Notes under the pieces: generated by a model | The model's database searches: none | What the model was told of the DNA's origin: nothing | What the model saw: the letters and a program-made list of their open reading frames with translations, nothing else | Assembly: GCA_903879805.1 (NCBI GenBank) | Contig: CAIRMX010000042.1 | Location: 1 to 63,581 of the forward strand | Length of the DNA stretch: 63,581 nt | Origin: an uncultured Alphaproteobacteria bacterium | GTDB taxonomy: Bacteria > Pseudomonadota > Alphaproteobacteria > Rickettsiales > UBA1997 | Reading direction: 5' to 3' | Program-made: the position numbers and the translations under genes | Shown here: in pieces, positions 9,381 to 59,282 of the stretch | Position numbering within the stretch: the first letter of the stretch is position 1 | Layout: each line of letters opens with the position of its first letter

Positions 9381-12300
9381 TTGCTACAGCTAAGGAGTTC
9401 TTATCACTCAAAATTGTTCTTATATGCTAAAAAAAAGAACGGTTTCACGCTACTAGAGGCTGCTGTTGTTCTCGTGATAATAGGAGTAATCGCTGCCGGA
9501 GTCTTTGCCGGCACCAAGCTTGTAAAAAAATTTAAAATTGCTGCAGCGCAAAATCTAACCTTATCTTCACCAGTACATGGAATTACTGATTGGATATTAT
9601 GGTTAGAAAGTAGTATGGATCAGAGTTTCAACGAGTCAGAAAGTAATAACAGCTCTTCACTCACCGCTTGGTATGATTTAAAGAACAGTGCTGCCAAAAA
9701 TAATGCCATTCAATCCTCTTCGCCAAACAGTCCGATCTATTCCAACAGTATTAATTATATCCAAGCCGTAAAATTCGATGGTACTAACTCTTATCTAGAT
9801 GTTGACGGTTCAGGGCTAAATAATACCGACTACACAATCATCATTCTCGAACAAAGAGATAGCGATAAAAACGGCAATTATTTTATCGGCGACGTCTCCT
9901 CAGCCAACGATTCAATTACTAACCGTAATCTGACTTTGGGCTATAGCGCGGACGGCAATATTCGTCATTCACAATCTAGCGACAATGTCTATACCGCCGC
10001 AGTTTCTCCCTATTCAGACTCTTTGGAAAAACCAAGAATCTTCACTTTTACTCGCAACAAATTAACCGGAAAAAAAATCTATGTTAACGGCATACTTGCC
10101 GCAACCAGCTCTGACACCAACAACCTTTCCAACTTATCCTCTATTAAAATTGGCAAAGATTATAATGGCCAGATTGGTGAAATAGTAATGTTTGCCCGTA
10201 ACCTCGAAGATGAAGAAAGAAAATCGATTGAAGATTATTTAGGCAAAAAATGGAACAGCCCAATCCTAAGATCAGTAGCTGGCGGCTCTTGCACCAATGG
10301 CATGATTACTCTTACCGGATGCACCGCAACCTGCAGCATTCCAAGTGGCACCGCCGGAATATTATCTACTTCAGTTTCTGATGGATCAGGCTCTCTAACC
10401 TGCAATACTTCCAATCACTTTATCGGATCTCTTTCTTACACTTGCTCTAATAGTATACTAACCTTTAGCGGCGCCTCTTCATGTGCGTGCGACAGCGGTT
10501 ATTATTTGCAAAGTGGTAGCTGTGTGCCAAACACCTGCTCAGTTCCAACGACTACAGGAATATCTGCCACTTCTGTGGCTGATGGTTCGGGTTCTCTAAC
10601 CTGCGACACCTCAGCACATTTCACCGGATCACTTCCTTACACTTGCTCTAGTACTAATTTAACACTTACGGGTGCCTCATCTTGTGCATGTGCCTCAGGC
10701 TATTATTTACAAGGCAGTAGTTGCCTTCCAAATGGTTGCAGCGTTAGCATCACAGGTGCTAGCACTACGTCAGTCTCCCTAGCTTCTGGAACATTTAGTT
10801 GCGACCAATCCGGCTATTCAGGAACCATCACTTACACCTGTGGCTCTGGAACTTTTGATACACTTTATGCCTGCGCCAGCGGCAGCTCGACCCCGCAATG
10901 CAGCGGCGGCACGATTGATACCAGCACGGTAAGCGGATCCGTGATTCACAAATTTACATCTTCCGGCTCCCTAACCTGCTCTTCATCAAGATCAGCGCAA
11001 GTATTAGTAGTTGGTGGTGGCGCCTCTGGCGGTGCTGCAATAGCTCAAGGTGGCGGTGGTGGTGGTGGCGGTGGTGGCGTTGTTTATAGCTCATCTTATC
11101 CAGTTGGCACCTCAGCAATTTCAGTAACTGTTGGCGCCGGTGGTACTTCTGTGGCTACAAGAAGTAACGGAAATAACGGTGCTAATTCAGTATTTGGAAC
11201 CATGACTGCTCTTGGCGGTGGCTACGGAGGAACTTGGAATGGTTCCACCACCACAAATGGTAATACTGGCGGATCTGGTGGTGGCGGAGGTGGCGCGTTT
11301 GGCGCATCTGGTGGATCTACAACCCAAACTGCTCAAACTAATGGCACCAGCTTTTATGGTAGCGCCGGTGGAACACCTATCAGCTCCAATCCTTACAATG
11401 CTGCCGGTGGCGGTGGTGCGGGTGGCGCGGGTGGAAATTCCAACGCGACAAATGGTGGAATTGGAGGAAATGGTATCTCTCACTCAATTAGCGGAAATGC
11501 TGTAACTTACGCAGCTGGCGGCGGCGGAAGTGGTGGTAACAGCAACAGAGCTGGTGGCGCTGGTGGGTCTTCCGGCCTTGGTGGCGCGGGTGGTACTGCT
11601 TACAGCACATCGAATGCTGGTGGCACCGGATCTTCGGCTGGCGGCTCTGCCGGTAATGGTGGTGGCGGATCTAACAATAATTCTTCGGGTGCTGGAAGTA
11701 ACGGGATAGTAATCGTACGTTACATTGGCAGCTCAGTATCTTGTCCAAGTGGCTATTCATTATCTGGCTCAAATTGCATAAAATCATGCAACGTCTCAGT
11801 TGCGGGTGTCTCAACTTCATCCGTCACTGCGGGAAGCGGCTCTCTATCTTGCGATGCCGCAGGATATACTGGCTCGGTAAGCTATACCTGCCCTTCTTCA
11901 GGAACATTAAGCACCACCGGTTCATGCGCTTGCGCTACCGGATATACCGGCTCTAGCTGTAGTAGCTGTGCCAGCGGATATTCTATGGTCAGCGGCACCT
12001 GCCAAGTCAGCTGCTCTTCAGGATCTATAGTTGGTGTCAATACCACCACAGTCGCTGCTGGAACCGGTTCCTTGCCTTGCAACGCTACCAACTTCAACAG
12101 CGCAACTTCAATTAATTATTCATGCTCGGGCGGCAGTTTTTCTGTGACATCAGGCACCTGTAATAGCTGCGCTTCGGGATACACTTTTGCCTCAAATCAA
12201 TGCTACCAAAATTGCACTATTAGTGGCATTAACGGAATTACCGCAGGCACCCCAGTAAATCACGGCAGTACTTCAATTACCTGTAACGCTTCAGGATATG

Positions 12301-13175
12301 TCGGAACCGTCAATTATACCTGTAACAATGCTTCATTTGCCCAAACTAGTGGATCATGCACGCTTTCTCCAGCTTGCACCGGCGGCACTATCGATACCTC
12401 TTCGGTTCCGAGATCAACCATTCATAGATTTACCTCAGCTGGAACTTTGACTTGTACAGCCACAAAAACTGGTGTGCAAATTCTGGTTGTAGGTGGTGGC
12501 GGTGGCGGCGGTAGCCATAGCTCAACACTTGGTGGTGGTGGCGCTGGCGGCGGCGTTGTTTCTGTTGTAAGCGCCTCTTTAAATGCAGCATCTTATTCGA
12601 TCACTATTGGTAATGGCGGCAATGGCGGTGGCGGTGGCTGCGGTAGTGCTGGTGGAAGTGGTATTAATAGCACATTATCTGGCAGCGGCATGTCAATCAC
12701 TGCCTATGGTGGCGGTGGTGGCGGCGGATGTAATCAAGGCAATGGTTCTAATGGTGGCTCAGTTGGTGGACATTCTTGTAACTCAAGCGGAGGAAGCGCT
12801 TCACAAGGTGCTGCTAGCGGAACTGGCGGCTCAGTTACTCTTTACGGAAATATCAGCGCCTCAACTGCACTATGCTCTAGCGGCAATGGTACGGCTGGTG
12901 GTGGTGGCGCTGGCGGAGCAAGTTCTGGACCTTCCGGCAATACTGCAGGCGCCGGTGGCGCCGGATTAAGCAATTTAATCACCGGAATCTCTCAAGTTTA
13001 TGGCTCGGGTGGCGGTGGACAAGGCACTAGCGGGGCTGCGGGGGGCACGAATGCCGGAACGGGAAAAAGTGGAGGCGGCCGAACAGGAGGTGGAGCGGGT
13101 ACTGATAACTTTGGCGGCGGTGGCGGTGGCGGCGGTGGCGTGGGAGGCTCAGGCGTGGTAATTATTCGCTACTAA
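9381..13175 (+). CDS. Giant prepilin-leader protein, paralog 1: LamG domain, then two copies of a supermodule made of a four-Cys repeat array plus a glycine-rich domain
   Basis: 1264 aa. Class III signal KKKNG|FTLLEAAVVLVIIGVIAAGVFAG. LamG-like signature at about 9633-10266 (TAWYDL, VKFDGTNSYLDV, DYTIIILE, IYVNGIL, GQIGEIVMFARNLEDEERKSIEDYLGKKW). Gly-rich domains lie at about 10899-11722 and 12375-13172, each ending G(I/V)VI(V/I)RY. The start is uncertain: TTG at 9381 or TTG at 9414. AAGGAG lies at 9392-9397. Confidence 0.85.
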   Translation: MLQLRSSYHSKLFLYAKKKNGFTLLEAAVVLVIIGVIAAGVFAGTKLVKKFKIAAAQNLTLSSPVHGITDWILWLESSMDQSFNESESNNSSSLTAWYDLKNSAAKNNAIQSSSPNSPIYSNSINYIQAVKFDGTNSYLDVDGSGLNNTDYTIIILEQRDSDKNGNYFIGDVSSANDSITNRNLTLGYSADGNIRHSQSSDNVYTAAVSPYSDSLEKPRIFTFTRNKLTGKKIYVNGILAATSSDTNNLSNLSSIKIGKDYNGQIGEIVMFARNLEDEERKSIEDYLGKKWNSPILRSVAGGSCTNGMITLTGCTATCSIPSGTAGILSTSVSDGSGSLTCNTSNHFIGSLSYTCSNSILTFSGASSCACDSGYYLQSGSCVPNTCSVPTTTGISATSVADGSGSLTCDTSAHFTGSLPYTCSSTNLTLTGASSCACASGYYLQGSSCLPNGCSVSITGASTTSVSLASGTFSCDQSGYSGTITYTCGSGTFDTLYACASGSSTPQCSGGTIDTSTVSGSVIHKFTSSGSLTCSSSRSAQVLVVGGGASGGAAIAQGGGGGGGGGGVVYSSSYPVGTSAISVTVGAGGTSVATRSNGNNGANSVFGTMTALGGGYGGTWNGSTTTNGNTGGSGGGGGGAFGASGGSTTQTAQTNGTSFYGSAGGTPISSNPYNAAGGGGAGGAGGNSNATNGGIGGNGISHSISGNAVTYAAGGGGSGGNSNRAGGAGGSSGLGGAGGTAYSTSNAGGTGSSAGGSAGNGGGGSNNNSSGAGSNGIVIVRYIGSSVSCPSGYSLSGSNCIKSCNVSVAGVSTSSVTAGSGSLSCDAAGYTGSVSYTCPSSGTLSTTGSCACATGYTGSSCSSCASGYSMVSGTCQVSCSSGSIVGVNTTTVAAGTGSLPCNATNFNSATSINYSCSGGSFSVTSGTCNSCASGYTFASNQCYQNCTISGINGITAGTPVNHGSTSITCNASGYVGTVNYTCNNASFAQTSGSCTLSPACTGGTIDTSSVPRSTIHRFTSAGTLTCTATKTGVQILVVGGGGGGGSHSSTLGGGGAGGGVVSVVSASLNAASYSITIGNGGNGGGGGCGSAGGSGINSTLSGSGMSITAYGGGGGGGCNQGNGSNGGSVGGHSCNSSGGSASQGAASGTGGSVTLYGNISASTALCSSGNGTAGGGGAGGASSGPSGNTAGAGGAGLSNLITGISQVYGSGGGGQGTSGAAGGTNAGTGKSGGGRTGGGAGTDNFGGGGGGGGGVGGSGVVIIRY

Positions 13176-14176: not shown

Positions 14177-15307
14177 TTAAAGGCCAACAATTCCAAAAAC
14201 TTCATTTCGGGTTTTCACAGCAATCTCACTAGCCTGATTTTTTCCATCATCCAAAACCTGACGGATGTAGCTCGGATCTTGCTTAAATCGCGCCAAATTT
14301 TCTTGAATCGGACGTAATTTTTCGATCAAACTTTCAGCTAAATCATTTTTAAATTTGCCGTTTCCTGCTGTTTCATATTCTTTAGCAATATCTTCTGGAA
14401 GCCTACCTGACGCCGCTGAAAAAATATTCAACAAATTGTAAATTTCCGGTCTCGCTTCATCAAAATTAATTGTGGCAAGCGAATCAGTTTTTGCCTTCTT
14501 AACTTTTTTCAAAATCACATCTGCTGAGTCTTCCAAATTGATGCGCGACAAATCTGATTCATCAGACTTACTCATTTTTTTAGCGCCATCTTGCAGCGAC
14601 ATAATACGCTTCACCGCCTTTAAAATCATAGGCTCAGGCAATTTAAAATATTCGGTGCTGTAGCGACGATTAAACGCGCCCGCAAGATCACGAGTTAATT
14701 CAAGATGTTGTTTTTGATCTTCGCCAACTGGCACTAAATCTGCCTTGTAAAGCAGAATGTCGGATGCCATTAGAACCGGGTAGGAGTAAAGCCCGAGGTT
14801 GGCTTTTTTAGAATCATGATAAAATAAAGACATTTGATCTCCTTCTGGATCTTCAGAATCCTCTAATATTTTTCTAAATACTTTTTCACTTTTTACTTCT
14901 CCTCCTCCATCCACAAGGAACGACGTGTATTCCTTTTGCTCTTCGTTCGTTAATACTTTTTCTTTAGGAGTAATTTTATCCTTAAACTGTGTCATCCGAT
15001 TCAACCATCCCATCGGCGTAATTGTTCCCAAAACCCACGCCAATTCTGCGTGCTGGGTCACTTCACTTTGCACAAAAATTGTCGATTTTTTTGGGTCTAA
15101 ACCGCAAGCCAGATAAACCGCCGTTGCGTCGATCACATTTTTTTGTAGCTCTTTTGGATCTTGCGGCAAAGTAATCGCGTGCAAATTCATCACGCCAAAA
15201 ATGCAGCGGTGCGTTGCTTGCAAGTCAATCCAGTTGGCGATTGAGCCGAGGTAATTTCCAAGATGTAAATTTCCTGTGGGCTGAATTCCTGAGAGAACTG
15301 TTTTCAT
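14177..15307 (-). CDS. trpS: Tryptophan--tRNA ligase with a lineage-specific insertion of about 49 aa
   Basis: 376 aa. HIGH-type motif GIQPTGNLHLGNYLG, YPVLMASDILLY, VPVGEDQKQHLELTRD and KMSKS (KKMSKSD). Extra residues lie between FKDK and NLGLYSYP (about 14810-14974). Confidence 0.93.
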   Translation of the reverse strand: MKTVLSGIQPTGNLHLGNYLGSIANWIDLQATHRCIFGVMNLHAITLPQDPKELQKNVIDATAVYLACGLDPKKSTIFVQSEVTQHAELAWVLGTITPMGWLNRMTQFKDKITPKEKVLTNEEQKEYTSFLVDGGGEVKSEKVFRKILEDSEDPEGDQMSLFYHDSKKANLGLYSYPVLMASDILLYKADLVPVGEDQKQHLELTRDLAGAFNRRYSTEYFKLPEPMILKAVKRIMSLQDGAKKMSKSDESDLSRINLEDSADVILKKVKKAKTDSLATINFDEARPEIYNLLNIFSAASGRLPEDIAKEYETAGNGKFKNDLAESLIEKLRPIQENLARFKQDPSYIRQVLDDGKNQASEIAVKTRNEVFGIVGL

Positions 15308-15346
15308 GAAATTGAGTTTAAGATTTTTTAATTTAAGCGCGTTGAC

Positions 15347-15442
15347 TGGACCCCGCAGTAAATGCGGGGTGACAAACTAAGGTGCGGAGTAAATCCCTCC
15401 TCGGTGTCACCCCGCATTTACTGCGGGGTCGAGTCAACGCGC
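15347..15442. repeat. Palindromic element, family 1 (RPE-like), architecture A
   Basis: gcgcgttgactggaccccgcagtaaatgcggggtgacaaac ... ctcggtgtcaccccgcatttactgcggggtcgagtcaacgcgc. It consists of two inverted copies of the module GGTGTCACCCCG-loop-CGGGGTCCAGTC. It lies between the divergent trpS and rnpB genes. Confidence 0.85.
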
Positions 15443-15515
15443 TCAGATTTTATTTATACTTTCTAGCAAATCTTAAATTGCTTTGAAAGGCGCGGCACCT
15501 TAATTTCGCGATCTT

Positions 15516-15916
15516 GTAAGGCAAGTGGATGGTCGCTGGTTTTAACTTGGTAACAAGTTTGAAAACTAGAGGAAAGTCCGGACTCTAGCGAGGAAAAATA
15601 TCAGTTAACGGCTGACCAGAATTTTGAATAAACTAGAAATTCTGAGGGAAAGTGTCACAGAGAATATACCGCTAAGCCTTCGGGCCAGTAAGGGTGAAAA
15701 CGCGAGGTAAAGGCTCACGCGCTTGCATGGTAACATGCATTTGGAAAAACCCTATTTAGAGCAAGACCAAATAGGAGTGGCAAGTTCTTCAATGAACAGA
15801 TGTCCTCGCCATCGTCACTCGGGTAGGTTGCTTGAGGTTAGCGGCGACGCTAATCCTAGATGAATGACTGTCGTTTGAGAAATCAGATACAAAATCCGGC
15901 TTATAGCTTGCCTTAC
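15516..15916 (+). ncRNA. rnpB: RNase P RNA, bacterial type A
   Basis: Universally conserved blocks in the correct order: GAGGAAAGUCCGG, ACAGAGA, GUAAGGGUGAAA, AGCAAGACCAAAUAGG, GGGUAGGUUGCUUGAG, CCUAGAUGAAUGACUGUC, ACAAAAUCCGGCUUAUAG. P1 pairing: gtaaggcaag (15516-15525) with cttgccttac (15907-15916). Ends are accurate to about +/-5 nt. Confidence 0.93.
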
Positions 15917-15938
15917 TTACAACTAAAAAATTTTACGC

Positions 15939-19725: not shown

Positions 19726-21039
19726 TTAATGTGTTTTTAAAAATTTAATTAGATCGGTTTTTTGCAATTTAAAATCATTTGCCGCCCAGAATTTTTTAGC
19801 CATTTCGATGGCCTTTCCAGCAGCTTGCCCCGTGAATCCAAGATTAATCACATCTTCACCACCTATTGGAAAATTTGGTAGGGAAAAGTTTTGCAAAAAT
19901 TTAATATTTTTTTTGGAGTTAGAATTTTTTTGTAGGTCGGAATTTTTGGCTAAAGAAAGTAAATACAAATCGAGTACAAGATCTTTGTCGGCAAAAGCTA
20001 ACAGTTGTTTGAGATCTCCCAGTCCCAACTCAAACCCACTGGACCCCGTCGTGAAGACGGGGTGACAAACTCTAGTTTGAGTTCCGTCTCGCCCCTCTCT
20101 CGGTGTCACCCCGTCTTCATGACGGGGTCCAGTCAACGCACTCAAAACATACAGAAAATATTTCTTTTCCAGATTTGTTGCGCAAATTTCTTGAGCAAAA
20201 ATTTTTAAATCGATTTCTTTTTGTAGAAATAATACCGCGATTTTTAGGTTTTGCGTGGCTAAAAATTCAAACTCTTTTTCTAAGTTATAAAGTCGCTCCA
20301 AAGCTTCAATATCAAGCTTTGAACTAAAAATTGAATCAGCAATTTTTTGCTCTTTAAGAACTTTTAAAACCGCGATTAAATTTTCTTTTTTCGCACTCAA
20401 AAGCATTTTTAAAACTTCAGCGCGCACTCTTTCTTTCGATAATTTTTTCAGGTTTTCTTTTTCGATCACGCAAGCATCTAAACCTTGCACATCAAGCTCT
20501 GCAGCATATTGGCAACTAAATCTGAAGAAGCGCAAAATGCGCAAATAATCTTCTTCGATTCTAGTTTTTGCCTCACCGATGAATCTAACTTTTTGCTTTT
20601 GAATATCAGAAATTCCATCGAAGTAGTCGCTCACCAAGCCAGCCGAATCAAGGTAAAGCGCGTTAATTGTAAAATCGCGCCTCTGTGCATCTAAAAAATA
20701 ATCACTGACAAATTCTGGCTCACAATGACGCCCATCAGTTTTGTCATCTTTGCGCAAAGTAGTAATTTCAAAATTCTTGCCAGCAACCACCGCCGTGATC
20801 GTGCCAAATTTGACGCCGGTTGGAATCGCCTTAATTTTATTTTTATTAATAATTTTGATGATTTCGTCAGGCAAATATTTTGTGCAAAAATCAAAATCAT
20901 GAACTTCTTTTTGCAACAATAAGTCGCGGACCGCACCGCCAACAATGCGGATTTCTTCACCGAAAATTTGGAAAAGAGTTTTTACTTCTGGGGAAAATTT
21001 TTTGATTAACTCTGGATGCGAGAAGGTTTTTGGCTGCAC
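19726..21039 (-). CDS. cca: CCA tRNA nucleotidyltransferase / poly(A) polymerase family protein carrying an in-frame palindromic element
   Basis: 437 aa with a GTG start. Motifs IVGGAVRDLLL, DFDF and RRDFTINALY. Residues LTGPRHEDGVTPREGRDGTQTRVCHPVFTTGSSG are encoded by the repeat at 20038-20143. Confidence 0.85.
   Translation of the reverse strand: MQPKTFSHPELIKKFSPEVKTLFQIFGEEIRIVGGAVRDLLLQKEVHDFDFCTKYLPDEIIKIINKNKIKAIPTGVKFGTITAVVAGKNFEITTLRKDDKTDGRHCEPEFVSDYFLDAQRRDFTINALYLDSAGLVSDYFDGISDIQKQKVRFIGEAKTRIEEDYLRILRFFRFSCQYAAELDVQGLDACVIEKENLKKLSKERVRAEVLKMLLSAKKENLIAVLKVLKEQKIADSIFSSKLDIEALERLYNLEKEFEFLATQNLKIAVLFLQKEIDLKIFAQEICATNLEKKYFLYVLSALTGPRHEDGVTPREGRDGTQTRVCHPVFTTGSSGFELGLGDLKQLLAFADKDLVLDLYLLSLAKNSDLQKNSNSKKNIKFLQNFSLPNFPIGGEDVINLGFTGQAAGKAIEMAKKFWAANDFKLQKTDLIKFLKTH
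20038..20143. repeat. Palindromic element, family 1, architecture A, inserted in frame in cca
   Basis: actggaccccgtcgtgaagacggggtgacaaac ... ctcggtgtcaccccgtcttcatgacggggtccagtcaacgcactc. The layout is the same as 15347-15442. The reading frame is maintained through the element. Confidence 0.85.
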
Positions 21040-29361: not shown

Positions 29362-29372
29362 TTAACTCCCCC

Positions 29373-29463
29373 TCTGGTGTGTCACTCCGTCGAATGACGG
29401 GGTCCACAGTGCCACAAACTCAGTAACGAAATGGACCTCGTCATTCGACGGGGTGACACCGAG
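29373..29463. repeat. Palindromic element, family 1, architecture B
   Basis: ctggtgtgtcactccgtcgaatgacggggtccac ... tggacctcgtcattcgacggggtgacaccgag. The same modules as in architecture A are present, but with the opposite relative orientation. It lies between the mltG stop and the addA start. Confidence 0.8.
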
Positions 29464-29516
29464 AATGAAAAGTGACATTGGAGTTTGCGAGAAAAGAACA
29501 AACATCTCAAAAACTC

Positions 29517-32500
29517 ATGAATAACCTCAACCTCTCCCAAACAGTTCAGCTTCAACAAAGCGCCTCTGACCCTAAAAATTCAGCTTGGGTTTTCGCGTCC
29601 GCAGGCTCCGGCAAAACTAAAATTCTCACCGATCGCGTTTTAAGACTTCTGCTTGATGACATTTCTCCGAGCAAAATTCTCTGCCTCACCTTCACCAAAG
29701 TCGCCGCCGCCGAAATGCAGCATCGTATAAATTCTGAATTGGCGAAATGGATTTTGTGCAGTGACGAAGAATTAGTAAAAAAACTCAGCGATTTAAGCGG
29801 CAAAAATCCAACCCAAATTGACCTGAAAAAAGCGCGAACTTTATTCGTCAAAATCCTCGATGAAGAAGCTAAAATCAAAGTTCAAACCATTCACTCTTTC
29901 TGCCAGACTTTAATCAAAATTTTTCCATTTGAAGCCAAGGTAAAACCAACTTTTGAAGTGTTGGAAGAAAATCAGGAAAAACTGTTACTCAAACAGGCGC
30001 AAAAAGAAGTTTTGAAAAAAGCGCTGACCAATCTTGAGCTGAAAAACTTAGTCCAAAAAACTAACGCCAAACTTCACGAAGAAAGCTTTACTGGCCTTGT
30101 TGCGAACCTTTTAAACAAAAAAGAACAACTCAACTCTTTGAAGGAAAATTTCTTCGGAATTGAGAATGTGATTGCGGAAATTTTTAAGAATTTTTCGGTG
30201 TCAAAAAATCAAGCTGATGCAGAAATTTTTGCTGATTTTTTAATCCAAATTAATCGCGCCGAAAATTTTGCTCTAGCCTCTCGCTTAGAAGCAGGAAGCT
30301 CCTCAAAAAATGCGGAAACTGCCACCAAGATCAGAATTTTTTTAGATGATCCAGTTTTAGAAAATTTCGAAACTTACAAATTAGCTTTTTTCACCAAAGA
30401 GAATGAGCCACGTAAAATTTACGGCGAACCAGCAAAAGATCAGATAAATCTTAGCTTCATGACCGACTCTCAAAAAATTATTTTGGATTTTTTGGACAAA
30501 TTAAACTCACTAAAAATTGCCAACGACACCGCCCTGCTTCTACGTTTTGTCGATCACATTTTAGAAAATTACTCGCAGCTAAAAAAACAAAATTCCGTTT
30601 TGGATTACAACGACCTAATCGTTGAAACCAATAGGCTCTTAGCTAATGCCGATTTTTCCAATTGGGTAAAATTAAAAATGGATGGTACTTTCGACCACGT
30701 TTTAATCGATGAATCACAGGATACTAACCACCAGCAATGGAATATTATTAAAGCGCTGAGCGAAGATTTTTTTGTGGGAGAAAGTTCGGCCAATAAAAAT
30801 CGCAGCATTTTTATTGTTGGTGATGAGAAACAGTCGATCTACAGTTTTCAAGGCGCTGAGCCCAATATTAGTGCGGAAATTTTTGAGTTTTTTGCGAGCA
30901 AACTTGGCGGCAATCTAAAAAAAATTGAGCTAAATAATTCTTTCCGCTCTGGCGCAAAAGTTTTGCAAGCAGTTGACCAAGTTTTCTCTGATCCAAAAAG
31001 AAAACACGCCATTAGCAAAGTATCGGAATTTTCCGAGCACAAACCAATCCGCGACGCCATTGGCAAGGTTGAAATCTGGCCGCAAATCCAAAATGAAAAA
31101 GAAGAGAAAAAAGAAAAAAGCTACGAGTGGCAAATTGATTTTACTGCCAAAAAAATTCCGCAAGAAGAAGAGATTTTGGCCGAGATTATTGCGCGAAAAA
31201 TTAAGTCACGAGTCGAGCTAAAAGAGCTAAACTACGGCGATTTCATGATTCTATTGCGCAATCGTACCAATGGTTTTGACCGCGCCTTAACTAAATTTTT
31301 TCACCAATATCAAATTCCTTTCACTTCCGTTAGTCGCGTGAAATTTAGCGAAAGCCTGTTGATTCAGGATCTGCTTAGCGCTGCTAAATTTGTCACTTTG
31401 CCACAAGATGATTTAAATTTGGCCTGCCTTTTGAAGTCACCGATTTTTGAAATGTCGGAAGAAAATTTACTAGAAATCTGCCTGAAAAAAAATGCCGATG
31501 AAAGCACTATTTATCAGGTTTTAGAGCATTTGCCAAAATTTTCTGAAGTTAAGAAAAATCTCGAAGAATTAATCACCAAATCGCAAAACCTCACCTGCTT
31601 TGAGTTTTTTTATTTTCTGCTTCACGAAAAAAATCATCAGCAAAATTTCATCGCGCATTTTGGGCCCGAAAGCGTGGAAATGCTGGATAAATTTACTTTA
31701 AGCGCCTTCGATTTTTCGCAGAATTTCTCTCCAAATTTGCAAAAGTTTTTAGAATTTATTGAAAGACTCGATCCGAGAATTTCATTGGCGTCAGAAGAAG
31801 ATAACCGCGTTCGAATCAGCACCATTCACTCAGCAAAAGGTCTGCAAGCCCGCGCCGTAATGGTTCCCGACTGTGCTTATAATTTTAATCAATTGCTTAG
31901 CGCTAAAGAGGAAATTTCTTGGGTGGAATTTGGTGGCGATAAATTTCCACTTTGGTGCCGAAAAAAAGATGATGAAAACCGCTACTTAAAAAAGCATCGC
32001 GCCGAAAAATTAATTGAAGCGAAAGAAGAATATTTACGCTTGCTTTACGTAGCAATGACGCGCGCTGAGGATGAGTTATATGTTGGAGGATTTGGTAATT
32101 CTTCAGATCCAGAATCTTGGTATGAGGTGGTGAAGAATTCGGTTACTTGTGGAGAAGTTGTGACGAAGGAAAAGTTTTTTGAACCGATCACTCTCACCCC
32201 AAATGTCATGCTGGGATTGTCGAATGGTGATTCAAGCCCGTGTCCAGAATCACCATTCGATAGGCTCAGGGTGACATCTAGTGGGGTTACGAAATCAACC
32301 CAAAACCAAATCAACCACTCCCAAATCAAAGGCCGACTCGTTCACAAAATTTTCGAAATCATCGGCAAAAATTTCAGCGCCGACAAAAATTGGCTGCTGC
32401 AATTAGCTGAAAAAATTATTCAAAAAGAAGAGTTTTTAGACGAGAAAGAAAAAAATAAAATACAGCACGAGATCTCTGAATTCATGGCTAGCGATCAATT

Positions 32501-32777
32501 TGAAAAACTTTTTTCAGGCAAAGTGAAATGCGAAATTGAACTTGCCGGAGAAGTCGAAAATAAAAAAATTCTCGGACGAATTGATCTGCTAGTTGAACGA
32601 GAAAATGAAATTTTAATCATCGATTACAAATCGGATGAAGCCTTGCCAAAAACAACTCCGCAGCATTATTTAAAGCAGCTAGAAACTTATGCAAAACTAG
32701 TAAGAAATCTTCACCCCAACCTGCCAATTAAAACCGGAATTTTTTGGACAGGATTTTTGAAATTAGAAATTTTTTAG
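29517..32777 (+). CDS. addA: Double-strand break repair helicase-nuclease AddA (UvrD-like helicase plus PD-(D/E)xK nuclease) carrying an in-frame palindromic element
   Basis: Walker A ASAGSGKT, IDESQDTN, VGDEKQSIYSFQGA, TIHSAKGLQ, YVAMTRA and C-terminal nuclease motif LIIDYKSDE. The start is ATG at 29517, with GTG at 29472 as an alternative. No addB is adjacent. Confidence 0.85.
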   Translation: MNNLNLSQTVQLQQSASDPKNSAWVFASAGSGKTKILTDRVLRLLLDDISPSKILCLTFTKVAAAEMQHRINSELAKWILCSDEELVKKLSDLSGKNPTQIDLKKARTLFVKILDEEAKIKVQTIHSFCQTLIKIFPFEAKVKPTFEVLEENQEKLLLKQAQKEVLKKALTNLELKNLVQKTNAKLHEESFTGLVANLLNKKEQLNSLKENFFGIENVIAEIFKNFSVSKNQADAEIFADFLIQINRAENFALASRLEAGSSSKNAETATKIRIFLDDPVLENFETYKLAFFTKENEPRKIYGEPAKDQINLSFMTDSQKIILDFLDKLNSLKIANDTALLLRFVDHILENYSQLKKQNSVLDYNDLIVETNRLLANADFSNWVKLKMDGTFDHVLIDESQDTNHQQWNIIKALSEDFFVGESSANKNRSIFIVGDEKQSIYSFQGAEPNISAEIFEFFASKLGGNLKKIELNNSFRSGAKVLQAVDQVFSDPKRKHAISKVSEFSEHKPIRDAIGKVEIWPQIQNEKEEKKEKSYEWQIDFTAKKIPQEEEILAEIIARKIKSRVELKELNYGDFMILLRNRTNGFDRALTKFFHQYQIPFTSVSRVKFSESLLIQDLLSAAKFVTLPQDDLNLACLLKSPIFEMSEENLLEICLKKNADESTIYQVLEHLPKFSEVKKNLEELITKSQNLTCFEFFYFLLHEKNHQQNFIAHFGPESVEMLDKFTLSAFDFSQNFSPNLQKFLEFIERLDPRISLASEEDNRVRISTIHSAKGLQARAVMVPDCAYNFNQLLSAKEEISWVEFGGDKFPLWCRKKDDENRYLKKHRAEKLIEAKEEYLRLLYVAMTRAEDELYVGGFGNSSDPESWYEVVKNSVTCGEVVTKEKFFEPITLTPNVMLGLSNGDSSPCPESPFDRLRVTSSGVTKSTQNQINHSQIKGRLVHKIFEIIGKNFSADKNWLLQLAEKIIQKEEFLDEKEKNKIQHEISEFMASDQFEKLFSGKVKCEIELAGEVENKKILGRIDLLVERENEILIIDYKSDEALPKTTPQHYLKQLETYAKLVRNLHPNLPIKTGIFWTGFLKLEIF
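32196..32287. repeat. Palindromic element, family 2, in frame inside addA
   Basis: accccaaatgtcatgctgggattgtcgaatggtgattc-aagcccgtgtcca-gaatcaccattcgataggctcagggtgacatctagtggggt. The central stem is a perfect 14 bp, and the arms match over about 38 nt. It encodes PNVMLGLSNGDSSPCPESPFDRLRVTSSG. Confidence 0.75.
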
Positions 32778-35698: not shown

Positions 35699-38005
35699 CT
35701 AGTAACGCACTATTACGACACCACTTCCACCTTTAGAGCCCGCAATATCCTGACTTGGCGCACCGCCACCGCCAGCACCAAGGCCGTCAGTTCCAGCCAC
35801 ACCGACATTGCCGCCACCTCCCAAACCGCCAGTGCCGTTGCTGCCGCCTGAGTTATAATAACTAGAAGCTCCACCACCGCCATAATAAGTAGCCGTTCCG
35901 GTTATGCTATTTTGTATGCCGACTCCACCATTGCCACCCTTAGTACTTGAACCATTTTGTCCGGCACCTCCAGCACCGCCGCCGCCACCACCACCATAGT
36001 TAGGAGCAGATGAAGAATTGTTTCCTCCGGCATATCCTTGACCACTAGTTGCAGTACCACCGTTTTTCGAAGACCCAGAAATTCCTCCCCCACCGCCAGA
36101 GCCTCCTGAAGGTGCCGGAGTAGTATCTGCCTGACGAGCACCACCACCGCCACCGCCAATTGCTGTCAAAGATGAAGAAAATAAAGAATTTTCGCCATTG
36201 CTTCCCACCAAATTTGGAAAAGATCCACCCGTTGAAGCACTGCCATTTCCACCCGAGCCCACCGTGACTGTAATAGGAGCAGTAACCGAAAAAGAGCTGT
36301 TATAAATAACTCCACCTGCTCCTCCGCCAGATCCTCCAGCACCCCCAGCTCCTCCGCTACCGCCGCCACCACCAGCAACCACTAACACTTGCACTGACTT
36401 TGTGGCAGGACAGGTGAAGGTATAAGTTCCAACCGTCATAAATTTAAAAATCGTAGATCCCGGCACTGACGTTGTATCAGCGCTTGGGGCACCAGTACCA
36501 CTGACTGAACAAGAACCTCCCAAAACACATGTGGAACCGGATAAACTATATCCCGAAGCGCAAGCACAAGTTCCAACCGAAGATAAAGTTCCATTATTGC
36601 AGCTGTAAGTAACATCTGCAGTTCCGCTAAAATTAGTGCCGTTACAGATAAAACTTCCACTAGCCTGATGTGCAACTGTAGTAGGAGTAGAAACTCCCGT
36701 AACTGCTGTAGTAGAGCAAGATGATCCCAAAACGCACGAACCACCTGATTCAACATATCCGCCCGCCGTGTTGCAAGCGCACGCTCCGCCGTAGCTCGCA
36801 GTACCATTGCTGCAACTGTATGAAACTGTCCCTGTGTAACCCGTAACATTGCAAGTCATGCTGCCAGTAGCGCCACTGGCAACTGAGCTAGTATTTGTCG
36901 ATCCAGTCAAACTAAGTGTGCATGGAATAGTCGGAGTGCAGCTTCCGCTAACACTCGCTGTGCCGCTGATACAAGTGTAACTAACAGATCCCGAATAGTT
37001 GGTCTGGTTACAAGCAATTGAGGTTGAAGATGAAGTGGCGGCAACTGTAGCGCTAATCCCAGCTTGGCTGATGGAACAAGTCGCAGAAGCTAAATCGCAT
37101 CCAGAATCAGTAATTGTATATCCAACACATGAGCCGCTTGGTGCTGAAGCTCTGTTGATTGAACGAGTCCATTTCTTACCAGCGTAATCTTCAATTGGTT
37201 GTCTTTCTTCGGGCTTTAAAGCGCGGGCGTAAATCGCGATTTCTCCGATTTCTCCGGTGTAGCCTTTGCCAATTGCAAGTGAAGTAATGCCAGAAAGGTG
37301 AGCGGTTTTAGTCGCATCCTGCGCGGCTAAAATACCGTTGATGTAAGTTGAATTTCCCGCTGTTGAGCTGTGAACAAATGTGAATTGACGTGGCTTATCG
37401 GTTGAAGATGCGTAAGAGCTAACCGATGCACCAGTGGCGTAAGATTGATTTCCTTGAGCGTGAATCACTGTTGAGTCTGAACCGTAACCTAAAGCTAAGC
37501 TAGTATTGGGACTTCCTGAAGTTTCTCCGATAAAATAATTGTTACTGGCAGAGCTTTGTCTCTTCTCCAGAACCATGATTGTGTAGTCGGTGCCGTTTAA
37601 AAACGAAGCATCCGAGATTTGCAAATAGTTCGCCGTACTTCCGTCAAACTTAATCGCGTGAACGTGATTGATGGTGTTTGCGTAAGTTGGACCGGTTCCC
37701 ACCGCAACCACTAAAGGTTTAGCAGCATTGCTACTTTGATCATACCAAGCAGTTACTGCGGCACCATCACTTGCTTGCGAGCTGTCGATACTGGCACTTA
37801 AGCTAGTTTCTAGCCACAGCATATTATCTTTGATTCCGGGAACTGGCGAAGAGCGAGCTAGAGATTCTGCGGCGGCTAAACGTGATTTTGCAATTATACG
37901 AGTTCCGATGAAGGTTCCCGAAATCATAATGCCGATGATTAAGATAATTACCGAGAGTTCGATGAGGGTGAAGGCACGCGACTTATAATGTTTTTTATAC
38001 TTCAT
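35699..38005 (-). CDS. Giant prepilin-leader protein, paralog 2: LamG, four-Cys repeats and one glycine-rich domain
   Basis: 768 aa. Leader MKYKKHYKSRA|FTLIELSVIILIIGIMISG. LamG at about 37159-37768 (TAWYDQ, IKFDGSTANYLQI, DYTIMVLEKRQ, GKGYTGEIGEIAIYARALKPEERQPIEDYAGKKW). Cys repeats at about 36506-37132. Gly-rich domain at about 35702-36505, ending GSGVVIVRY. Confidence 0.85.
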   Translation of the reverse strand: MKYKKHYKSRAFTLIELSVIILIIGIMISGTFIGTRIIAKSRLAAAESLARSSPVPGIKDNMLWLETSLSASIDSSQASDGAAVTAWYDQSSNAAKPLVVAVGTGPTYANTINHVHAIKFDGSTANYLQISDASFLNGTDYTIMVLEKRQSSASNNYFIGETSGSPNTSLALGYGSDSTVIHAQGNQSYATGASVSSYASSTDKPRQFTFVHSSTAGNSTYINGILAAQDATKTAHLSGITSLAIGKGYTGEIGEIAIYARALKPEERQPIEDYAGKKWTRSINRASAPSGSCVGYTITDSGCDLASATCSISQAGISATVAATSSSTSIACNQTNYSGSVSYTCISGTASVSGSCTPTIPCTLSLTGSTNTSSVASGATGSMTCNVTGYTGTVSYSCSNGTASYGGACACNTAGGYVESGGSCVLGSSCSTTAVTGVSTPTTVAHQASGSFICNGTNFSGTADVTYSCNNGTLSSVGTCACASGYSLSGSTCVLGGSCSVSGTGAPSADTTSVPGSTIFKFMTVGTYTFTCPATKSVQVLVVAGGGGGSGGAGGAGGSGGGAGGVIYNSSFSVTAPITVTVGSGGNGSASTGGSFPNLVGSNGENSLFSSSLTAIGGGGGGARQADTTPAPSGGSGGGGGISGSSKNGGTATSGQGYAGGNNSSSAPNYGGGGGGGAGGAGQNGSSTKGGNGGVGIQNSITGTATYYGGGGASSYYNSGGSNGTGGLGGGGNVGVAGTDGLGAGGGGAPSQDIAGSKGGSGVVIVRY

Positions 38006-41948: not shown

Positions 41949-42048
41949 TTTTGAACTAAATAAGTTAGAATTTTAGGGGAAGAATGAACATGCAGACGGA
42001 GTTACAAACTCCCTCTGGCGCTGGGGTACGCGGGTTGCGATCGTGTTT

Positions 42049-44811: not shown

Positions 44812-45224
44812 GCTTAGGTCAAAAAAATTTTGGGAAGATTTGGGGACAAAATTTCAACTTGATCTGGCCCGTCAAGATATACTTCTCTCGCATCTCAAAA
44901 ATAGATTTTCAAAGTTGTAGGTAGCTTTTAGAAATCACCACTATCTAATGCGCGCACCTTGCGATAAATTCCAAGGTGACCGAAGTGTCGATTGTAGCGC
45001 AACACCAAATCTAACCACAGATTTGGTCAAGCTTGAAGACTCCCGCACCAACCCTTGGTACGGCCAGCTTTCGCGGGGACTCTCCCGCATCATCAAATCA
45101 ATAGCTAAGTTCCCTTTAGATTTTCAGATTTGAGAATAGTTGTTTTTTCTTTTACCTATCTTTGTCACTTACCGCAATTTTTTTGCGGCAATCCGGTTTT
45201 TTTCAAACATCAAATTTTTTGATA

Positions 45225-47461: not shown

Positions 47462-47497
47462 GCTCCCCTCCTTGAAAAGGAGAGGCTTTAGATCGAG
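47462..47497. repeat. Solo right-end copy of the CCCCTCCTT/AAGGAGGGG hairpin element family
   Basis: gctcccctccttgaaaaggagaggctttagatcgag matches 51237-51273. It lies 6 nt downstream of the stop of the minus-strand helicase gene. Confidence 0.7.
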
Positions 47498-47503
47498 AAT
47501 TTT

Positions 47504-49810: not shown

Positions 49811-50989
49811 TTAAAAAACCTTCTTCAACGCCGCCACCGCTTTCTTCATGTCATCTTCATCACGAATCAAAGAGAATCTGGCAAACCCTTCTCCATTAGC
49901 GCCAAAGCTGCTTCCGGGAGACATTACAACGCCGGTTTCAGCAATCATTTTTTGACAAAATTCAAAAGAAGTAAGATGCGCAAATTGCTTTGGCAGCTTA
50001 GTCCACAAGAACATGCTGGCTTTTGGTTTTTCGATTTTCCAACCAAGTTCTTTGTCTAAAAGTTCAACCAAAAATTCGCCGCGCGCTTTGTATTTTTGAC
50101 GTAAGCCCGCCAAATATTCGTCACTCTTTTCACTCAAAGCATCAACTGCCACCATTTGCAGCGGGTTGAACGAACCGTAGTCGAGATAAGATTTTATTTT
50201 GTAAAGTGCGCCAACCAAAGTTGGATTGCCAACTGCAAAACCAACGCGACATCCAGCCATGGAATAGCTTTTTGAAACCGATGAAAACTCAATGGCAATG
50301 TCTTTAGCACCTTTAACTTCTAAGATCGAATGAGGCTTGTCGGCTTCATTAAAATAAAGTTCGCAGTAAGCGATGTCAGAAATGATGTAGATTTTATGCT
50401 TGATGCAAAAGGCAACTAACTCTTCGTAAAAATCCAAACCAACAATTTCAGTGGTTGGGTTGCAGGGGTAACTAACAATCACAGCGAGCGGCTTTTCTTC
50501 TACGGCCTCAATATATTTTTTAAACTCACGCAAAAAATCCGCACCGCTAATTGCTGGCAAATGGATGATGTTACTTTTCGAAAGCGTGAAGGCAAAAGTG
50601 TGAATCGGATAAGCCGGAGACGGCACGATCATGTAATTTTCGGGGCTAGAAATTGCTGAAGCCAAACTTGCGATACCTTCTTTCGCGCCAATAGTAACAA
50701 GGGCTTCTGAATTGTAATCTAGCTCAACATTAAAGCGCCGCGCGTAATATTCGCAAATCGCTTTTTTCAAAACATCAATGCCACCAGTCACCGAATAACC
50801 AAAAAGTTTTGGGTCGCGCGACAACTCCGCCAAACGATCCATCACAAATTGTGGTGGCGGCGAATCAGGAGTTCCCATGCCAAAATCAATAATTTCAACA
50901 CCTTTTGCAGCCGCTTCGGTTTTAAGTTTATACATTGCAGCAAAAATGTAGGGCGGGAGTTTTTCGGTGAGATAGAATTCTTTTTGCAT
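49811..50989 (-). CDS. PLP-dependent aminotransferase, class I/II (LL-diaminopimelate or alanine aminotransferase-like)
   Basis: 392 aa. Motifs GMGTPDSPPP, PSPAYPIH, NPTT and the PLP-lysine motif SVSKSYSMAGCRVGF. Confidence 0.8.
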   Translation of the reverse strand: MQKEFYLTEKLPPYIFAAMYKLKTEAAAKGVEIIDFGMGTPDSPPPQFVMDRLAELSRDPKLFGYSVTGGIDVLKKAICEYYARRFNVELDYNSEALVTIGAKEGIASLASAISSPENYMIVPSPAYPIHTFAFTLSKSNIIHLPAISGADFLREFKKYIEAVEEKPLAVIVSYPCNPTTEIVGLDFYEELVAFCIKHKIYIISDIAYCELYFNEADKPHSILEVKGAKDIAIEFSSVSKSYSMAGCRVGFAVGNPTLVGALYKIKSYLDYGSFNPLQMVAVDALSEKSDEYLAGLRQKYKARGEFLVELLDKELGWKIEKPKASMFLWTKLPKQFAHLTSFEFCQKMIAETGVVMSPGSSFGANGEGFARFSLIRDEDDMKKAVAALKKVF

Positions 50990-51273: not shown

Positions 51274-51387
51274 AACTATTTCAAAAACTTTTTTCAAGAT
51301 ATCGCCAGTTTTGGATTGCGCTGCGTTTTACCCGCTTTAATTTGCACCGCTCCAATTTTCTTCTTCCAAATCAAATCAATCAAAACC

Positions 51388-59110: not shown

Positions 59111-59156
59111 GGGAAATTAAATTAGTTCAACTCAACACCTACGAACTTGTCACAAC

Positions 59157-59261
59157 CTCGGTGTCACCCCGTCTTTACGACGGGGTCCAGTCTTAAAAGC
59201 ACAAACGTTAAGTTCAGAGTTTGGAGACTGGACCCCGCAGTAAATGCGGGGTGACACCGAG
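59157..59261. repeat. Palindromic element, family 1, architecture B
   Basis: ctcggtgtcaccccgtctttacgacggggtccagtc ... gactggaccccgcagtaaatgcggggtgacaccgag. It lies 22 nt downstream of the virB3 stop. Confidence 0.85.
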
Positions 59262-59282
59262 TTAGTGATGGGTAACCTTTAC

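Follow-up and report, generated by a model that had tools for sequence, protein, structure and literature searches.

Hairpin modules in the window

The stretch of DNA analysed here over its whole length of 63.6 kb (the window) contains four short palindromic elements, copies 1 to 4, whose positions and surrounding genes are given in Table 1. LpxI, class I LysRS, and VirB3 are encoded in the neighbourhood, the G+C content of the host is 42.6%, and the nearest named relative of the gene that carries copy 2 is labelled Rickettsiales bacterium. The covariance model R1, built on the hairpin module and run on the whole window, detected exactly eight modules arranged in four inverted pairs, two for each orientation. 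The E-values of the eight modules ranged from 1e-13 to 1.5e-7, and the runner-up matches (E >= 0.13) were the opposite-strand reading of the same eight hairpins. A 33-nt module pattern with up to three mismatches gave six matches in the window, compared with 0.00 in 100 dinucleotide-preserving shuffles; a chance origin of the modules, for which the expectation is 0, is excluded. The preliminary description had located the four composite elements to within a few bases of these positions (20038-20146 for copy 2 with its flank). It had also proposed a degenerate remnant at 41992-42025, a region in which R1 returned nothing even at E <= 10 and which is only loosely similar to the copy 1 spacer.

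Table 1. Positions of the palindromic elements, their module cores, and the gene carrying copy 2
Feature	Position	Strand	Description
Copy 1	15332..15447	.	TT dimer, CCA tails outside; 30-nt spacer 15375-15404; between divergent trpS (14177-15307, -) and RNase P RNA gene (15517-15919, +)
Copy 1, left-arm module core	15347..15374	-	TGTC-ACCCCGCA-TTTAC-TGCGGGGT-CCA
Copy 1, right-arm module core	15405..15432	+	Tail CGA, not CCA
Gene carrying copy 2	19726..21039	-	CCA tRNA nucleotidyltransferase / poly(A) polymerase family (PF01743), 437 aa
Copy 2	20038..20133	.	TT dimer, 96 nt, in frame in the CCA-adding enzyme gene; module flank GTCAACGCACTCA runs on to 20146
Copy 2, left-arm module core	20040..20067	-	TGTC-ACCCCGTC-TTCAC-GACGGGGT-CCA
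Copy 2, right-arm module core	20104..20131	+	
Copy 3	29370..29466	.	HH dimer; 25-nt spacer, 4-nt loops; between mltG/yceG stop codon (29361) and addA-like helicase-nuclease gene (29472-32777)
Copy 3, left-arm module core	29380..29406	+	TGTC-ACTCCGTC-GAAT-GACGGGGT-CCA; one U-G pair
Copy 3, right-arm module core	29432..29458	-	One mismatched pair
Copy 4	59154..59264	.	HH heterodimer; 39-nt spacer; left arm GTC stem variant, right arm GCA variant; between virB3 stop codon (59283, -) and intrinsic terminator 59110-59088 (-), upstream of aspS
Copy 4, left-arm module core	59162..59189	+	TGTC-ACCCCGTC-TTTAC-GACGGGGT-CCA
Copy 4, right-arm module core	59229..59256	-	

The modules share the layout TGTC / ACCCCGYM / 4-5 nt loop / KRCGGGGT / CCA. 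The tag TGTC was invariant in all eight and did not pair with the 3' flank. The G+C-rich stem of 8 bp had 98% of its cells paired, compared with 33-50% when the partner was slid; pair 1 was A-U and pair 2 was C-G in every module, and pairs 7 and 8 were U-A/C-G in five modules and C-G/A-U in three. The loop was 5 nt long except in the two modules of copy 3, where it was 4 nt, and the unpaired tail was CCA in seven of the eight modules (CGA in the other). Sequence conservation extended beyond this unit to CTCGG on the 5' side of the tag and GTCAACGCRCTCA on the 3' side of the tail, and these longer flanks result in extended outer inverted repeats in both kinds of dimer. The module had been described correctly overall, and the co-variation of its inner stem is real; the inner arms of copies 1 and 2, however, read TTTGTCAC and not GGTGTCAC, the modules of copy 3 are more degenerate (CACTCCG, GAGGTCCAT) with their shorter loops, and one tail deviates as stated above.

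All eight modules occurred in dimers with spacers of 25-39 nt, giving composites of 95-120 nt with arms of 30-45 nt that were 84-97% complementary. The two opposite architectures reported previously were both recovered from the one module: in copies 1 and 2 (architecture A) the ends reading ...GGTCCAGTC face outward and the tags lie inside, as in TT dimers, whereas in copies 3 and 4 (architecture B) the ends reading CTCGGTGTCAC face outward and the TGTC tags lie outside, as in HH dimers. Either kind can fold as a single long hairpin or as two small ones. For copy 1, with arms of 45 nt that were 93% complementary, the single-stranded DNA hairpin had a predicted energy of -55 kcal/mol (z -14.8). 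The right arm of copy 4 and the left arm of copy 1 were 100% identical over 31 nt.

Insertion in the CCA-adding enzyme gene

Copy 2 contributes 32 stop-free codons to its host gene, corresponding to residues 303-334 and the peptide TGPRHEDGVTPREGRDGTQTRVCHPVFTTGSS, and orthologues without the insert are 390-410 aa long. In the AlphaFold2 model, residues 301-340 had pLDDT values of 48-59 and the flanking helices, 289-303 and 340-349, were well modelled. The dimer was missing in nine of 20 orthologues, and filled and empty orthologues were intermingled on the tree. At this site, the relative L122 retained a remnant left by an 84-bp deletion. Across the orthologues, the variable segment was either empty or occupied by other palindromic repeat families or by CGTC dimers that differed in stem and spacer, and it is a recurrent landing or tolerance site. 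The 32 extra residues of the CCA-adding enzyme should be annotated as a repeat-derived insertion and not as a new domain. A literature search with repeat-encoded peptides (PAFAGMT, PAKAGIQ, and others) found no paper.

Turnover among relatives

Occupancy was compared at sites 1, 2, and 3 and in the trpS-nadA spacer, using syntenic relatives with 97%, 92%, and 77% nucleotide identity. The site orthologous to that of copy 1 was empty in L122 and L124. The spacer orthologous to that of copy 3 was 36 nt long and had no dimer in L122 and L123, the latter being 96.8% identical in DNA. Conversely, the spacer between trpS and nadA, which is 12 nt long in the window, was occupied by an HH dimer in L124. 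Since genomes that are 97% identical in DNA differ in which sites are filled, the repeats turn over quickly in this lineage. Their mobility is suggested by this pattern of presence and absence in sequenced relatives and not by an observed insertion event, and some of the differences are accounted for by the loss of pre-existing palindromes, as with the deletion remnant in L122.

Occurrence in other genomes

The preliminary description had called the family specific to its lineage and had proposed a wider scan for further copies. When the module pattern was scanned against 185,579 species-representative genomes, at least 120 loci with the same tag-hairpin-tail module were obtained, mostly in Alphaproteobacteria but in other phyla too. 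Three features that the search pattern did not require recurred in the 145 matches listed: a CCA-type tail (CA after GGGGTC) in 95 (66%, against 6% expected), two or more extra complementary stem pairs in 137 (94%), and a loop of 4-5 nt in 118 (81%). Among the matches listed, the unit was found singly, as direct pairs, and in both inverted orientations, and many genomes had both HH and TT dimers. A locus of Rickettsia asembonensis had modules of this type arranged as an HH dimer, and a unit of it, TGTCACCCCGTGGTCAAACCACGGGGTCCA, fits the search pattern. A metagenome scan with a stricter pattern gave 32 loci, all from G+C-rich or unrelated lineages and all typical CGTC HH heterodimers; none of the 32 came from the lineage of the window.

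Relation to the CGTC-tagged REPs and other palindromic repeats

Repeats of this kind were defined by Di Nocera, De Gregorio and Rocco (2013, BMC Genomics 14:522, PMC3733652), who describe REPs with an unpaired CGTC tag (variants TGTC and CCTC) directly 5' of a stem of 8-9 bp, in which complementary A/T at positions 1 and 2 is almost invariable; the loop has 4-5 nt, and the unpaired 3' tail is short, with the consensus CCA. According to the same authors, these REPs occur mainly in Alphaproteobacteria, are unevenly spread among related genomes, and form HH, TT, or HT homo- or heterodimers with spacers of 20-100 bp, HH being predominant and TT rare. Intragenic copies are in frame and encode 20-30 aa; in R. 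conorii, CGTC-1 corresponds to RPE-6 and CGTC-4 to RPE-4. Neither an association with a transposase nor a RAYT is known for them in that account (PMC3733652).

The elements in the window agree with this definition in the TGTC variant of the tag, the 8-bp stem opening with A-T, the loop of 4-5 nt, the CCA tail, the alphaproteobacterial host, the HH and TT homo- and heterodimers with spacers of 25-39 nt, the in-frame intragenic dimer of about 30 aa, and the lack of a flanking transposase. They differ in that stem pair 2 is C-G, not A-T or T-A, that TT is as frequent as HH (two of each, in a set of only four elements), that the units have longer conserved flanks, and that the host belongs to an uncultured Rickettsiales-like MAG lineage outside the coverage of the paper. 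The assignment of the modules to CGTC-1 to CGTC-4 is approximate. Because the module matches a published and widely dispersed definition, the family is not lineage-specific, and the two architectures are not new, since they correspond to the HH and TT dimers known from REPs. The four elements most probably represent dimers of a CGTC-tagged (here TGTC) REP, that is, non-coding, non-autonomous, essentially selfish repeats that are quickly gained, lost, and replaced, and we put the probability of this reading at roughly 0.8. They are ordinary members of a class that is already described and very widespread, and their architectures were known as well.

The elements had been regarded as an analogue of the Rickettsia palindromic elements. 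The behaviour agrees: they are short, palindromic, and dispersed, close relatives differ in whether a given site is occupied, and one of the elements lies in frame in a gene, where copy 2 adds 32 aa. The resemblance goes further than analogy, as the module fits the superfamily that includes RPE-4 and RPE-6 of R. conorii. Both share the tag-hairpin-CCA unit and have dimers in frame within housekeeping genes. The encoded peptides are, for example, VIPWLDHGIQ and VIPAKAGI in RPE-4/RPE-6, with CHPVFTTGS and GPRHEDGVT as the counterparts in the window. The RPE-4-type unit has a stem of 9 bp (…CCGTGG/CCACGG…), unlike the 8-bp stem in the window, and usually starts with AT. The similarity is modest, R1 scoring 22-26 bits on the Rickettsia locus compared with 39-64 bits for the copies in the window. 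RPE names apply to the genus Rickettsia only and the present host is not Rickettsia, so the elements do not belong to any named RPE family. The dimers are also distinct from the classical long RPE-1 (~150 bp). The insertion of RPE-like palindromes in frame is not limited to Rickettsia but occurs in uncultured relatives too.

The elements also resemble the GTAG REPs, BIMEs, and REPINs of E. coli and Pseudomonas, which likewise consist of short hairpins next to an unpaired tag that does not vary, occur singly or as inverted dimers of either orientation, can fold as dimers into one long hairpin, and are distributed unevenly and variably among strains. The tag is TGTC/CGTC instead of GTAG, the tail differs, and the window and 124 loci yielded no RAYT; the working principle common to both groups is likely that a single-stranded hairpin is recognised along with its tag.

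Alternative explanations

The hairpins might instead serve mainly as functional RNA or DNA structures, such as stabilisers of mRNA 3' ends, RNase targets, attenuators, or protein-binding sites, which we consider improbable. In its favour, pairing in the stem has survived two double compensatory changes and one G-U pair; across hundreds of genomes the flanks stay constant and the stems vary; and virB3 has copy 4 in its 3' untranslated region, before the intrinsic terminator. Many REPs are argued by Di Nocera et al. (PMC3733652) to be transcribed and to have a possible role in tuning the expression of nearby genes. A common function is difficult to reconcile with contexts as inconsistent as a divergent promoter region, two co-directional spacers, and a coding region, or with sites that are empty in relatives at 92-97% DNA identity with their flanking genes intact. 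Since the arms of a dimer are reverse complements, a signal at the transcript level would be strand-symmetric, which also argues against this explanation. No Rfam family corresponded to the hairpins: at the gathering threshold, RNase P RNA was the only match in the window, and the E-value mode added only sub-threshold, generic long-hairpin models of eukaryotic miRNA precursors. The tRNA/tmRNA scan found nothing. Selection for RNA or DNA structure, as proposed in the preliminary description, is a possible reading: maintenance of the hairpin is clear, but with two stem variants, selection on a transcript is indistinguishable from a need of the copying machinery, and the co-variation in the window, which comprises these two variants only, may stem from a single event. 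Secondary exaptation of individual copies is possible.

The composites could also be MITEs, namely deleted derivatives of DDE-type insertion sequences in which the arms act as terminal inverted repeats and which move by cut-and-paste with target-site duplication. Their size, their long and largely complementary terminal arms, the folding of the whole composite into a single long hairpin, and their polymorphism among relatives would all suit such an element. Fixed ends would not, however, be expected of an element that also occurs as single units, as direct pairs, and as inverted pairs of either orientation, and the 'terminal' sequence is not the same in architectures A and B. Comparison of filled and empty sites in the CCA-adding enzyme gene revealed no target-site duplication at copy 2. 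Transposase domains were absent from the unannotated ORFs of the window, and no transposase was present in the window or adjoining the modules in 124 loci; a BLAST search of copy 4 in distant mode against 72,556 plasmids gave no match. Composite transposons were considered at L069 and L118 and rejected, the segments bracketed by modules there containing the housekeeping genes glmS, anmK, and tyrS and not transposases. No parent insertion sequence was found in these searches that would make the copies fragments of a known IS terminal repeat, and we regard a MITE origin as very improbable.

That the elements are bidirectional intrinsic transcription terminators, as G+C-rich hairpins located between genes might be, is scarcely credible, given that no T-run follows any module, that the terminator scan was negative at copies 1, 3, and 4, that a separate canonical terminator adjoins copy 4, and that copy 1 lies between divergent genes and copy 2 in an ORF that needs read-through. 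Two other candidates were discarded: a CRISPR array, because regular spacing is lacking, and attC or Xer-type recombination sites, the core-site consensus sequences of which do not fit the module flanks.

Possible mode of copying and use in annotation

By analogy with the action of RAYT on GTAG REPs, new copies of the CGTC-type dimers may arise from single-stranded DNA hairpins by means of a trans-acting enzyme that would recognise the tag and the tail together with the shape of the hairpin. Such an enzyme would account for constant flanks accompanied by co-varying stems, and for the absence of target-site duplication. On the REP reading, the elements persist at places where they cause little harm: spacers between genes, 3' untranslated regions, and, when the reading frame is kept, surface loops of proteins that tolerate them. 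A phmmer search with E. coli RayT against the 4,036 ORFs of 90 aa or more in the window and the 124 loci had no match at E <= 10, and Alphaproteobacteria have few or no Y1 transposases, which counts against a RAYT-like route.

The differences between 97%-identical genomes and the identical 31-nt arms at distant loci suggest active copying; on these grounds, copying of the TGTC/CCA REPs might still be going on in this lineage, by a hairpin-specific enzyme other than RAYT, although we think this unlikely. If it were true, the putative enzyme would use the invariant single-stranded tag and the CCA tail as recognition or cleavage signals, and comparative genomics of near-identical MAG sets could find the mobilising function of the CGTC superfamily, including RPE-4 and RPE-6. 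Given the quick turnover, the lineage is a reasonable place in which to seek the activity that moves CGTC repeats. More speculatively, and from its shape alone, the unit '7-8 bp stem + N + CCA' may be a mimic of a tRNA acceptor minihelix on which tRNA-processing enzymes act at the RNA level.

The main use of the present results is in annotation, where the four elements can be masked or labelled as CGTC-type REP dimers.

Four dimeric palindromes in the window

The arms of the four palindromic composites (copies 1 to 4) were returned by the repeat finder as families D15 and D17, and reading of the four sites bore out the preliminary description, which had claimed four full copies. A 33-nt module pattern with up to 3 mismatches gave 6 matches in the window versus 0.00 in 100 dinucleotide-preserving shuffles. 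R1, a covariance model of the module made from alignment A2 of the 8 arms, was used to score all window positions. It found exactly the 8 arms (E = 1e-13 to 1.5e-7), the next-best matches (E >= 0.13) being the same hairpins on the opposite strand; all modules in the window therefore belong to the four composites, and none stands alone. The degenerate remnant proposed at 41992-42025 was undetected by R1 even at E <= 10 and showed by eye only a loose likeness to the copy 1 spacer. The observation of palindromic elements is correct and well above chance.

Coordinates of the palindromic elements and other features in the window
Feature	Position	Strand	Remark
Copy 1 (architecture A)	15332-15447		I6, 15330-15374 / 15405-15449, 93% complementary
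Copy 2 (architecture A)	20038-20133 (flank to 20146)		I19, 20038-20067 / 20104-20133, 97% complementary
Copy 3 (architecture B)	29370-29466		
Copy 4 (architecture B)	59154-59264		I7, 59150-59198 / 59220-59268, 84% complementary
RNase P RNA	15517-15919	+	Rfam RF00010, class A bacterial, full length, 258 bits
Stretch of trpS	14795-14973	-	unalignable between genomes
Intrinsic terminator	59110-59088	-	canonical
virB3	59283-59579	-	stands alone (type IV secretion)
Second palindromic family	1-84, 47465-47501, 51086-51130, 51223-51284		about six copies in the window
Genes around a second-family inverted pair	49811-50989; 51316-52587	-; +	
DEAD-box helicase genes	45162-47267; 47504-49063	+; -	1,139-nt inverted repeat, 76% complementary
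Tandem 52-nt repeats	46985-47192		
Large paralogous proteins	9381-13175; 35699-38005; 42049-44811	+; -; -	PF21722

The layout of all 8 aligned arms was TGTC / A CCCC G Y M / loop / K R C GGGG T / CCA, with the tail being CCA in 7/8 arms and CGA in 1/8. In the 8-bp stem, 98% of cells were paired versus 33-50% when the 3' partner was slid by 1-3 columns, and the first pair was A-U in 8/8 arms. Six arms had 5-nt loops, and the two arms of copy 3 had 4-nt loops. Co-variation of the inner stem, also claimed previously, was confirmed: the two innermost pairs were U-A/C-G in 5 arms and C-G/A-U in 3, which are two double compensatory differences. The outer inverted repeats extend past the hairpin in both kinds of composite because flanks are shared, namely CTCGG ahead of the tag in most arms and GTCAACGCRCTCA 3' of the tail in the architecture A copies. 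The tags lie inside and the tails outside in copies 1 and 2, whereas the tags lie outside in copies 3 and 4; copy 4 is a heterodimer with a GTC stem in one arm and a GCA stem in the other. As single-stranded DNA, each composite folded into one long hairpin (-31 to -55 kcal/mol; z-scores against shuffles of -7 to -15), and identity between distant copies reached 31 nt.

The second, unrelated palindromic family has the hairpin CCCCTCCTT-(TTCA/GAAA)-AGGAGGGG with shared flanks TCGAG... and ...TTGGGGGTGGTTATTC, and two of its copies form an inverted pair between genes. Most 'direct repeat families' of the repeat scan were GGT/GGC-rich coding repeats of three large paralogous proteins, whose N-terminal methylation motif is type IV pilin-like and whose C-terminal domain (PF21722) is glycine-rich. 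The two convergent helicase genes are paralogous, and the C-terminal SFGGGER-type repeat tail of the plus-strand helicase corresponds to the tandem 52-nt repeats.

Relationship to CGTC-tagged REPs and distribution of the module

Two superfamilies of prokaryotic repetitive extragenic palindromes (REPs), one tagged with GTAG and the other with CGTC, have been distinguished (Di Nocera, De Gregorio, and Rocco, BMC Genomics 2013, PMC3733652). According to that paper, CGTC repeats have 4-5 nt loops and a 3-nt tail, mostly CCA, are found mostly in alpha-Proteobacteria, in all orders, and form homo- or heterodimers with 20-100 bp spacers, among which HH dimers (tags outside) are predominant, TT dimers (tags inside) rare, and HT dimers negligible. 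Intragenic copies are in frame, and dimers encode 20-30 amino acids. The paper also equates CGTC-1 and CGTC-4 of R. conorii with the Rickettsia palindromic elements RPE-6 and RPE-4, respectively, and its supplementary table contains R. conorii peptides such as VIPAKAGI, HSRFRGND, and VIPWLDHGIQ (PMC3733652). Back-translation of these peptides gave the same tag-stem-loop-stem-CCA design.

The window module agrees with the CGTC-tagged REPs in tag, stem length, first pair, loop, and tail, but differs in its second stem pair, which is C-G. The two opposite architectures noted in the preliminary description are real in the window, but their novelty was not supported, as B is the HH dimer and A the TT dimer described in 2013. 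On the basis of this agreement and these dimer types, the elements were therefore assigned to the CGTC-tagged REP superfamily as new members. The RPE comparison was apt. The window elements are related to RPE-4 and RPE-6 and work likewise, but strictly the term RPE applies only within the genus Rickettsia and does not cover them. The elements belong to a kind described in 2013, and what is mildly new is the host lineage and the equal number of TT and HH dimers.

The pattern TGTCACCCCG-N7-11-CGGGGTC was scanned over 185,579 species-representative genomes and occurred at at least 120 loci, a number that alone proves nothing, since rough arithmetic (17-base pattern, five gap lengths, about 600 Gb) predicts a few hundred chance matches. 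Three features that the pattern did not demand were frequent among the matches listed: CA after GGGGTC (95/145; 6% expected), at least two further complementary pairs lengthening the stem (137/145), and a 4-5 nt loop (118/145). Most loci among the matches listed were from Alphaproteobacteria (Rickettsiales MAGs, Tepidicaulis, Parvibaculum, Devosia, Sphingomonas, and low-G+C MAGs), and Fibrobacter, Treponema, Burkholderiales, and others were also present. Inverted module pairs in both orientations, 55-90 nt apart, were common among them, and direct pairs occurred too. Rickettsia asembonensis carried the HH dimer TGTCATCCCGCGATCAAGTCGCGGGATCCA + TGTCACCCCGTGGTCAAACCACGGGGTCCA, and a stricter pattern gave 32 loci in JGI metagenomes, typical HH heterodimers of other lineages. 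The proposed lineage specificity was not supported.

Genomic settings and occupancy in related genomes

Copy 1 separates the divergent trpS gene from that of RNase P RNA, 70 nt upstream of the latter, and so occupies the expected promoter region of rnpB and trpS. Copy 3 is flanked by the stop codon of mltG and by an addA-like helicase-nuclease gene, and copy 4 follows the virB3 stop codon and precedes the intrinsic terminator upstream of aspS. Scattered vir genes are typical of Rickettsiales. Copy 2 lies within the 437-codon gene of the CCA-adding enzyme (PF01743), in frame and stop-free, encoding TGPRHEDGVTPREGRDGTQTRVCHPVFTTGSS. Only zero to two of six frames per composite were stop-free, so the composites are not generally coding. 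No T-run was found 3' of any module and the terminator scan rejected the modules, which excludes terminators; Rfam yielded only sub-threshold generic hairpin matches.

Three syntenic loci with DNA identities to the window of 96.8% (L123), 92.1% (L122), and 77.4% (L124) were compared. At site 1, L122 and L124 have a short trpS-rnpB spacer with no element, whereas an independent metagenome contig (L001) carries copy 1 unchanged. The window TrpRS, at 376 aa, is longer than that of L122 (340 aa) or L124 (366 aa); its additional residues (about 36, around ...NEEQKEYTSFLVDGGGEVKSEKVFRKILEDSEDPEGDQ...) correspond to the unalignable trpS stretch, in which no R1 module was found. The mltG-addA spacer (site 3) is just 36 nt in L122 and L123. 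At this site, L122 has no element and L124 has other sequence; in L123 (1640-1696, orthologue of window 29362-29471), the place of the 97-nt HH dimer is taken by TGTCACCCTGAGCCTGTCGAAGGGTGACA, a small hairpin unrelated to it. The window retains GTGACATTGGAG, the 3' part of this hairpin, right after the copy 3 dimer, and at this position one kind of repeat appears to have been exchanged for another. Conversely, the trpS-nadA interval holds an HH dimer in L124 and is 12 nt in the window. Orthologous-site occupancy varies between genomes 92-97% identical, and repeat turnover at 97% genome identity is mildly new.

A primary role as regulatory RNA is disfavoured because the settings are inconsistent, one being a coding region, and the same sites lack elements in near-identical genomes; co-option may still have occurred at single copies, for instance copy 4, which lies in a 3' untranslated region.

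Insertion in the CCA-adding enzyme

The host gene of copy 2 has close orthologues. The dimer is present with three substitutions in L123 and with a 13-nt spacer in L159; the L124 version has a GCA-type stem in each arm, and its 93-nt spacer includes additional GGGGTGAC fragments. L122 has lost 84 bp by an in-frame deletion and retains GTTGAC|GGGGCCCAGTGGG, which is the 3' half of the right-arm stem. L158 (protein P0003) has no trace of the dimer (GCTGTG-AACGAA-GTTGAG versus GCGTTG-[96 nt]-GGGTTTGAG in the window), and this comparison revealed no target-site duplication. Among 20 aligned orthologues, the position was occupied by a CGTC-type TT dimer in six, by the remnant in one, and by other inserts in four, and was empty in nine. 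Two of the other inserts (P0011 and P0014) were palindromic repeats of the 'PSPLVGEGWGEG' type, possibly related to the second family of the window. That different palindromic repeats have repeatedly occupied one segment of this enzyme is mildly new.

Filled and empty orthologues were intermixed on a neighbour-joining protein tree with the insert columns left out; therefore, several gains, losses, or replacements are needed, the tree being unbootstrapped and only indicative. The stems also differ between orthologues (GTC versus GCA on both arms), a change for which replacement or conversion from another genomic copy would be a simpler explanation than eight point substitutions. AlphaFold2 modelled the window's enzyme with a mean pLDDT of 85; the single extended low-confidence stretch, residues 301-340 (pLDDT 48-59), falls where the insert is and separates helices 289-303 and 340-349. 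A dimer can be accommodated in frame within a tolerant part of an essential enzyme.

Possible mode of dispersal

The elements are unlikely to be a DDE-type MITE because their ends vary, units occur singly and as direct pairs too, the copy 2 site lacks a duplication, and the window and 124 loci yielded no parent element. The units in the window are dispersed and change in stem sequence while keeping the hairpin shape; constant single-stranded flanks with a variable stem would suit the needs of a structure-specific single-stranded DNA enzyme. Examples are TnpA of IS200/IS605 and, for GTAG REPs, RAYT; their chemistry leaves no target duplication, and the copy 2 site would fit chemistry of this type. 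A phmmer search with E. coli RayT gave no match in 4,036 ORFs of the window and 124 loci, and no transposase domain was found in the window's unannotated ORFs. These results agree with the literature: Y1 transposases are few in Alphaproteobacteria, and the 2013 paper reports no transposase gene association and no known dedicated transposase for CGTC repeats (PMC3733652).

The module-bracketed segments in two other loci (L069 and L118) contained housekeeping genes. In L118 (5029-6414, uncultured Rickettsiales MAG), modules flank an anmK-tyrS segment, and a stretch of the TyrRS gene, …DLIAGSSEKATLDAAVKPQHDS…, resembles another in-frame palindromic-repeat insertion.
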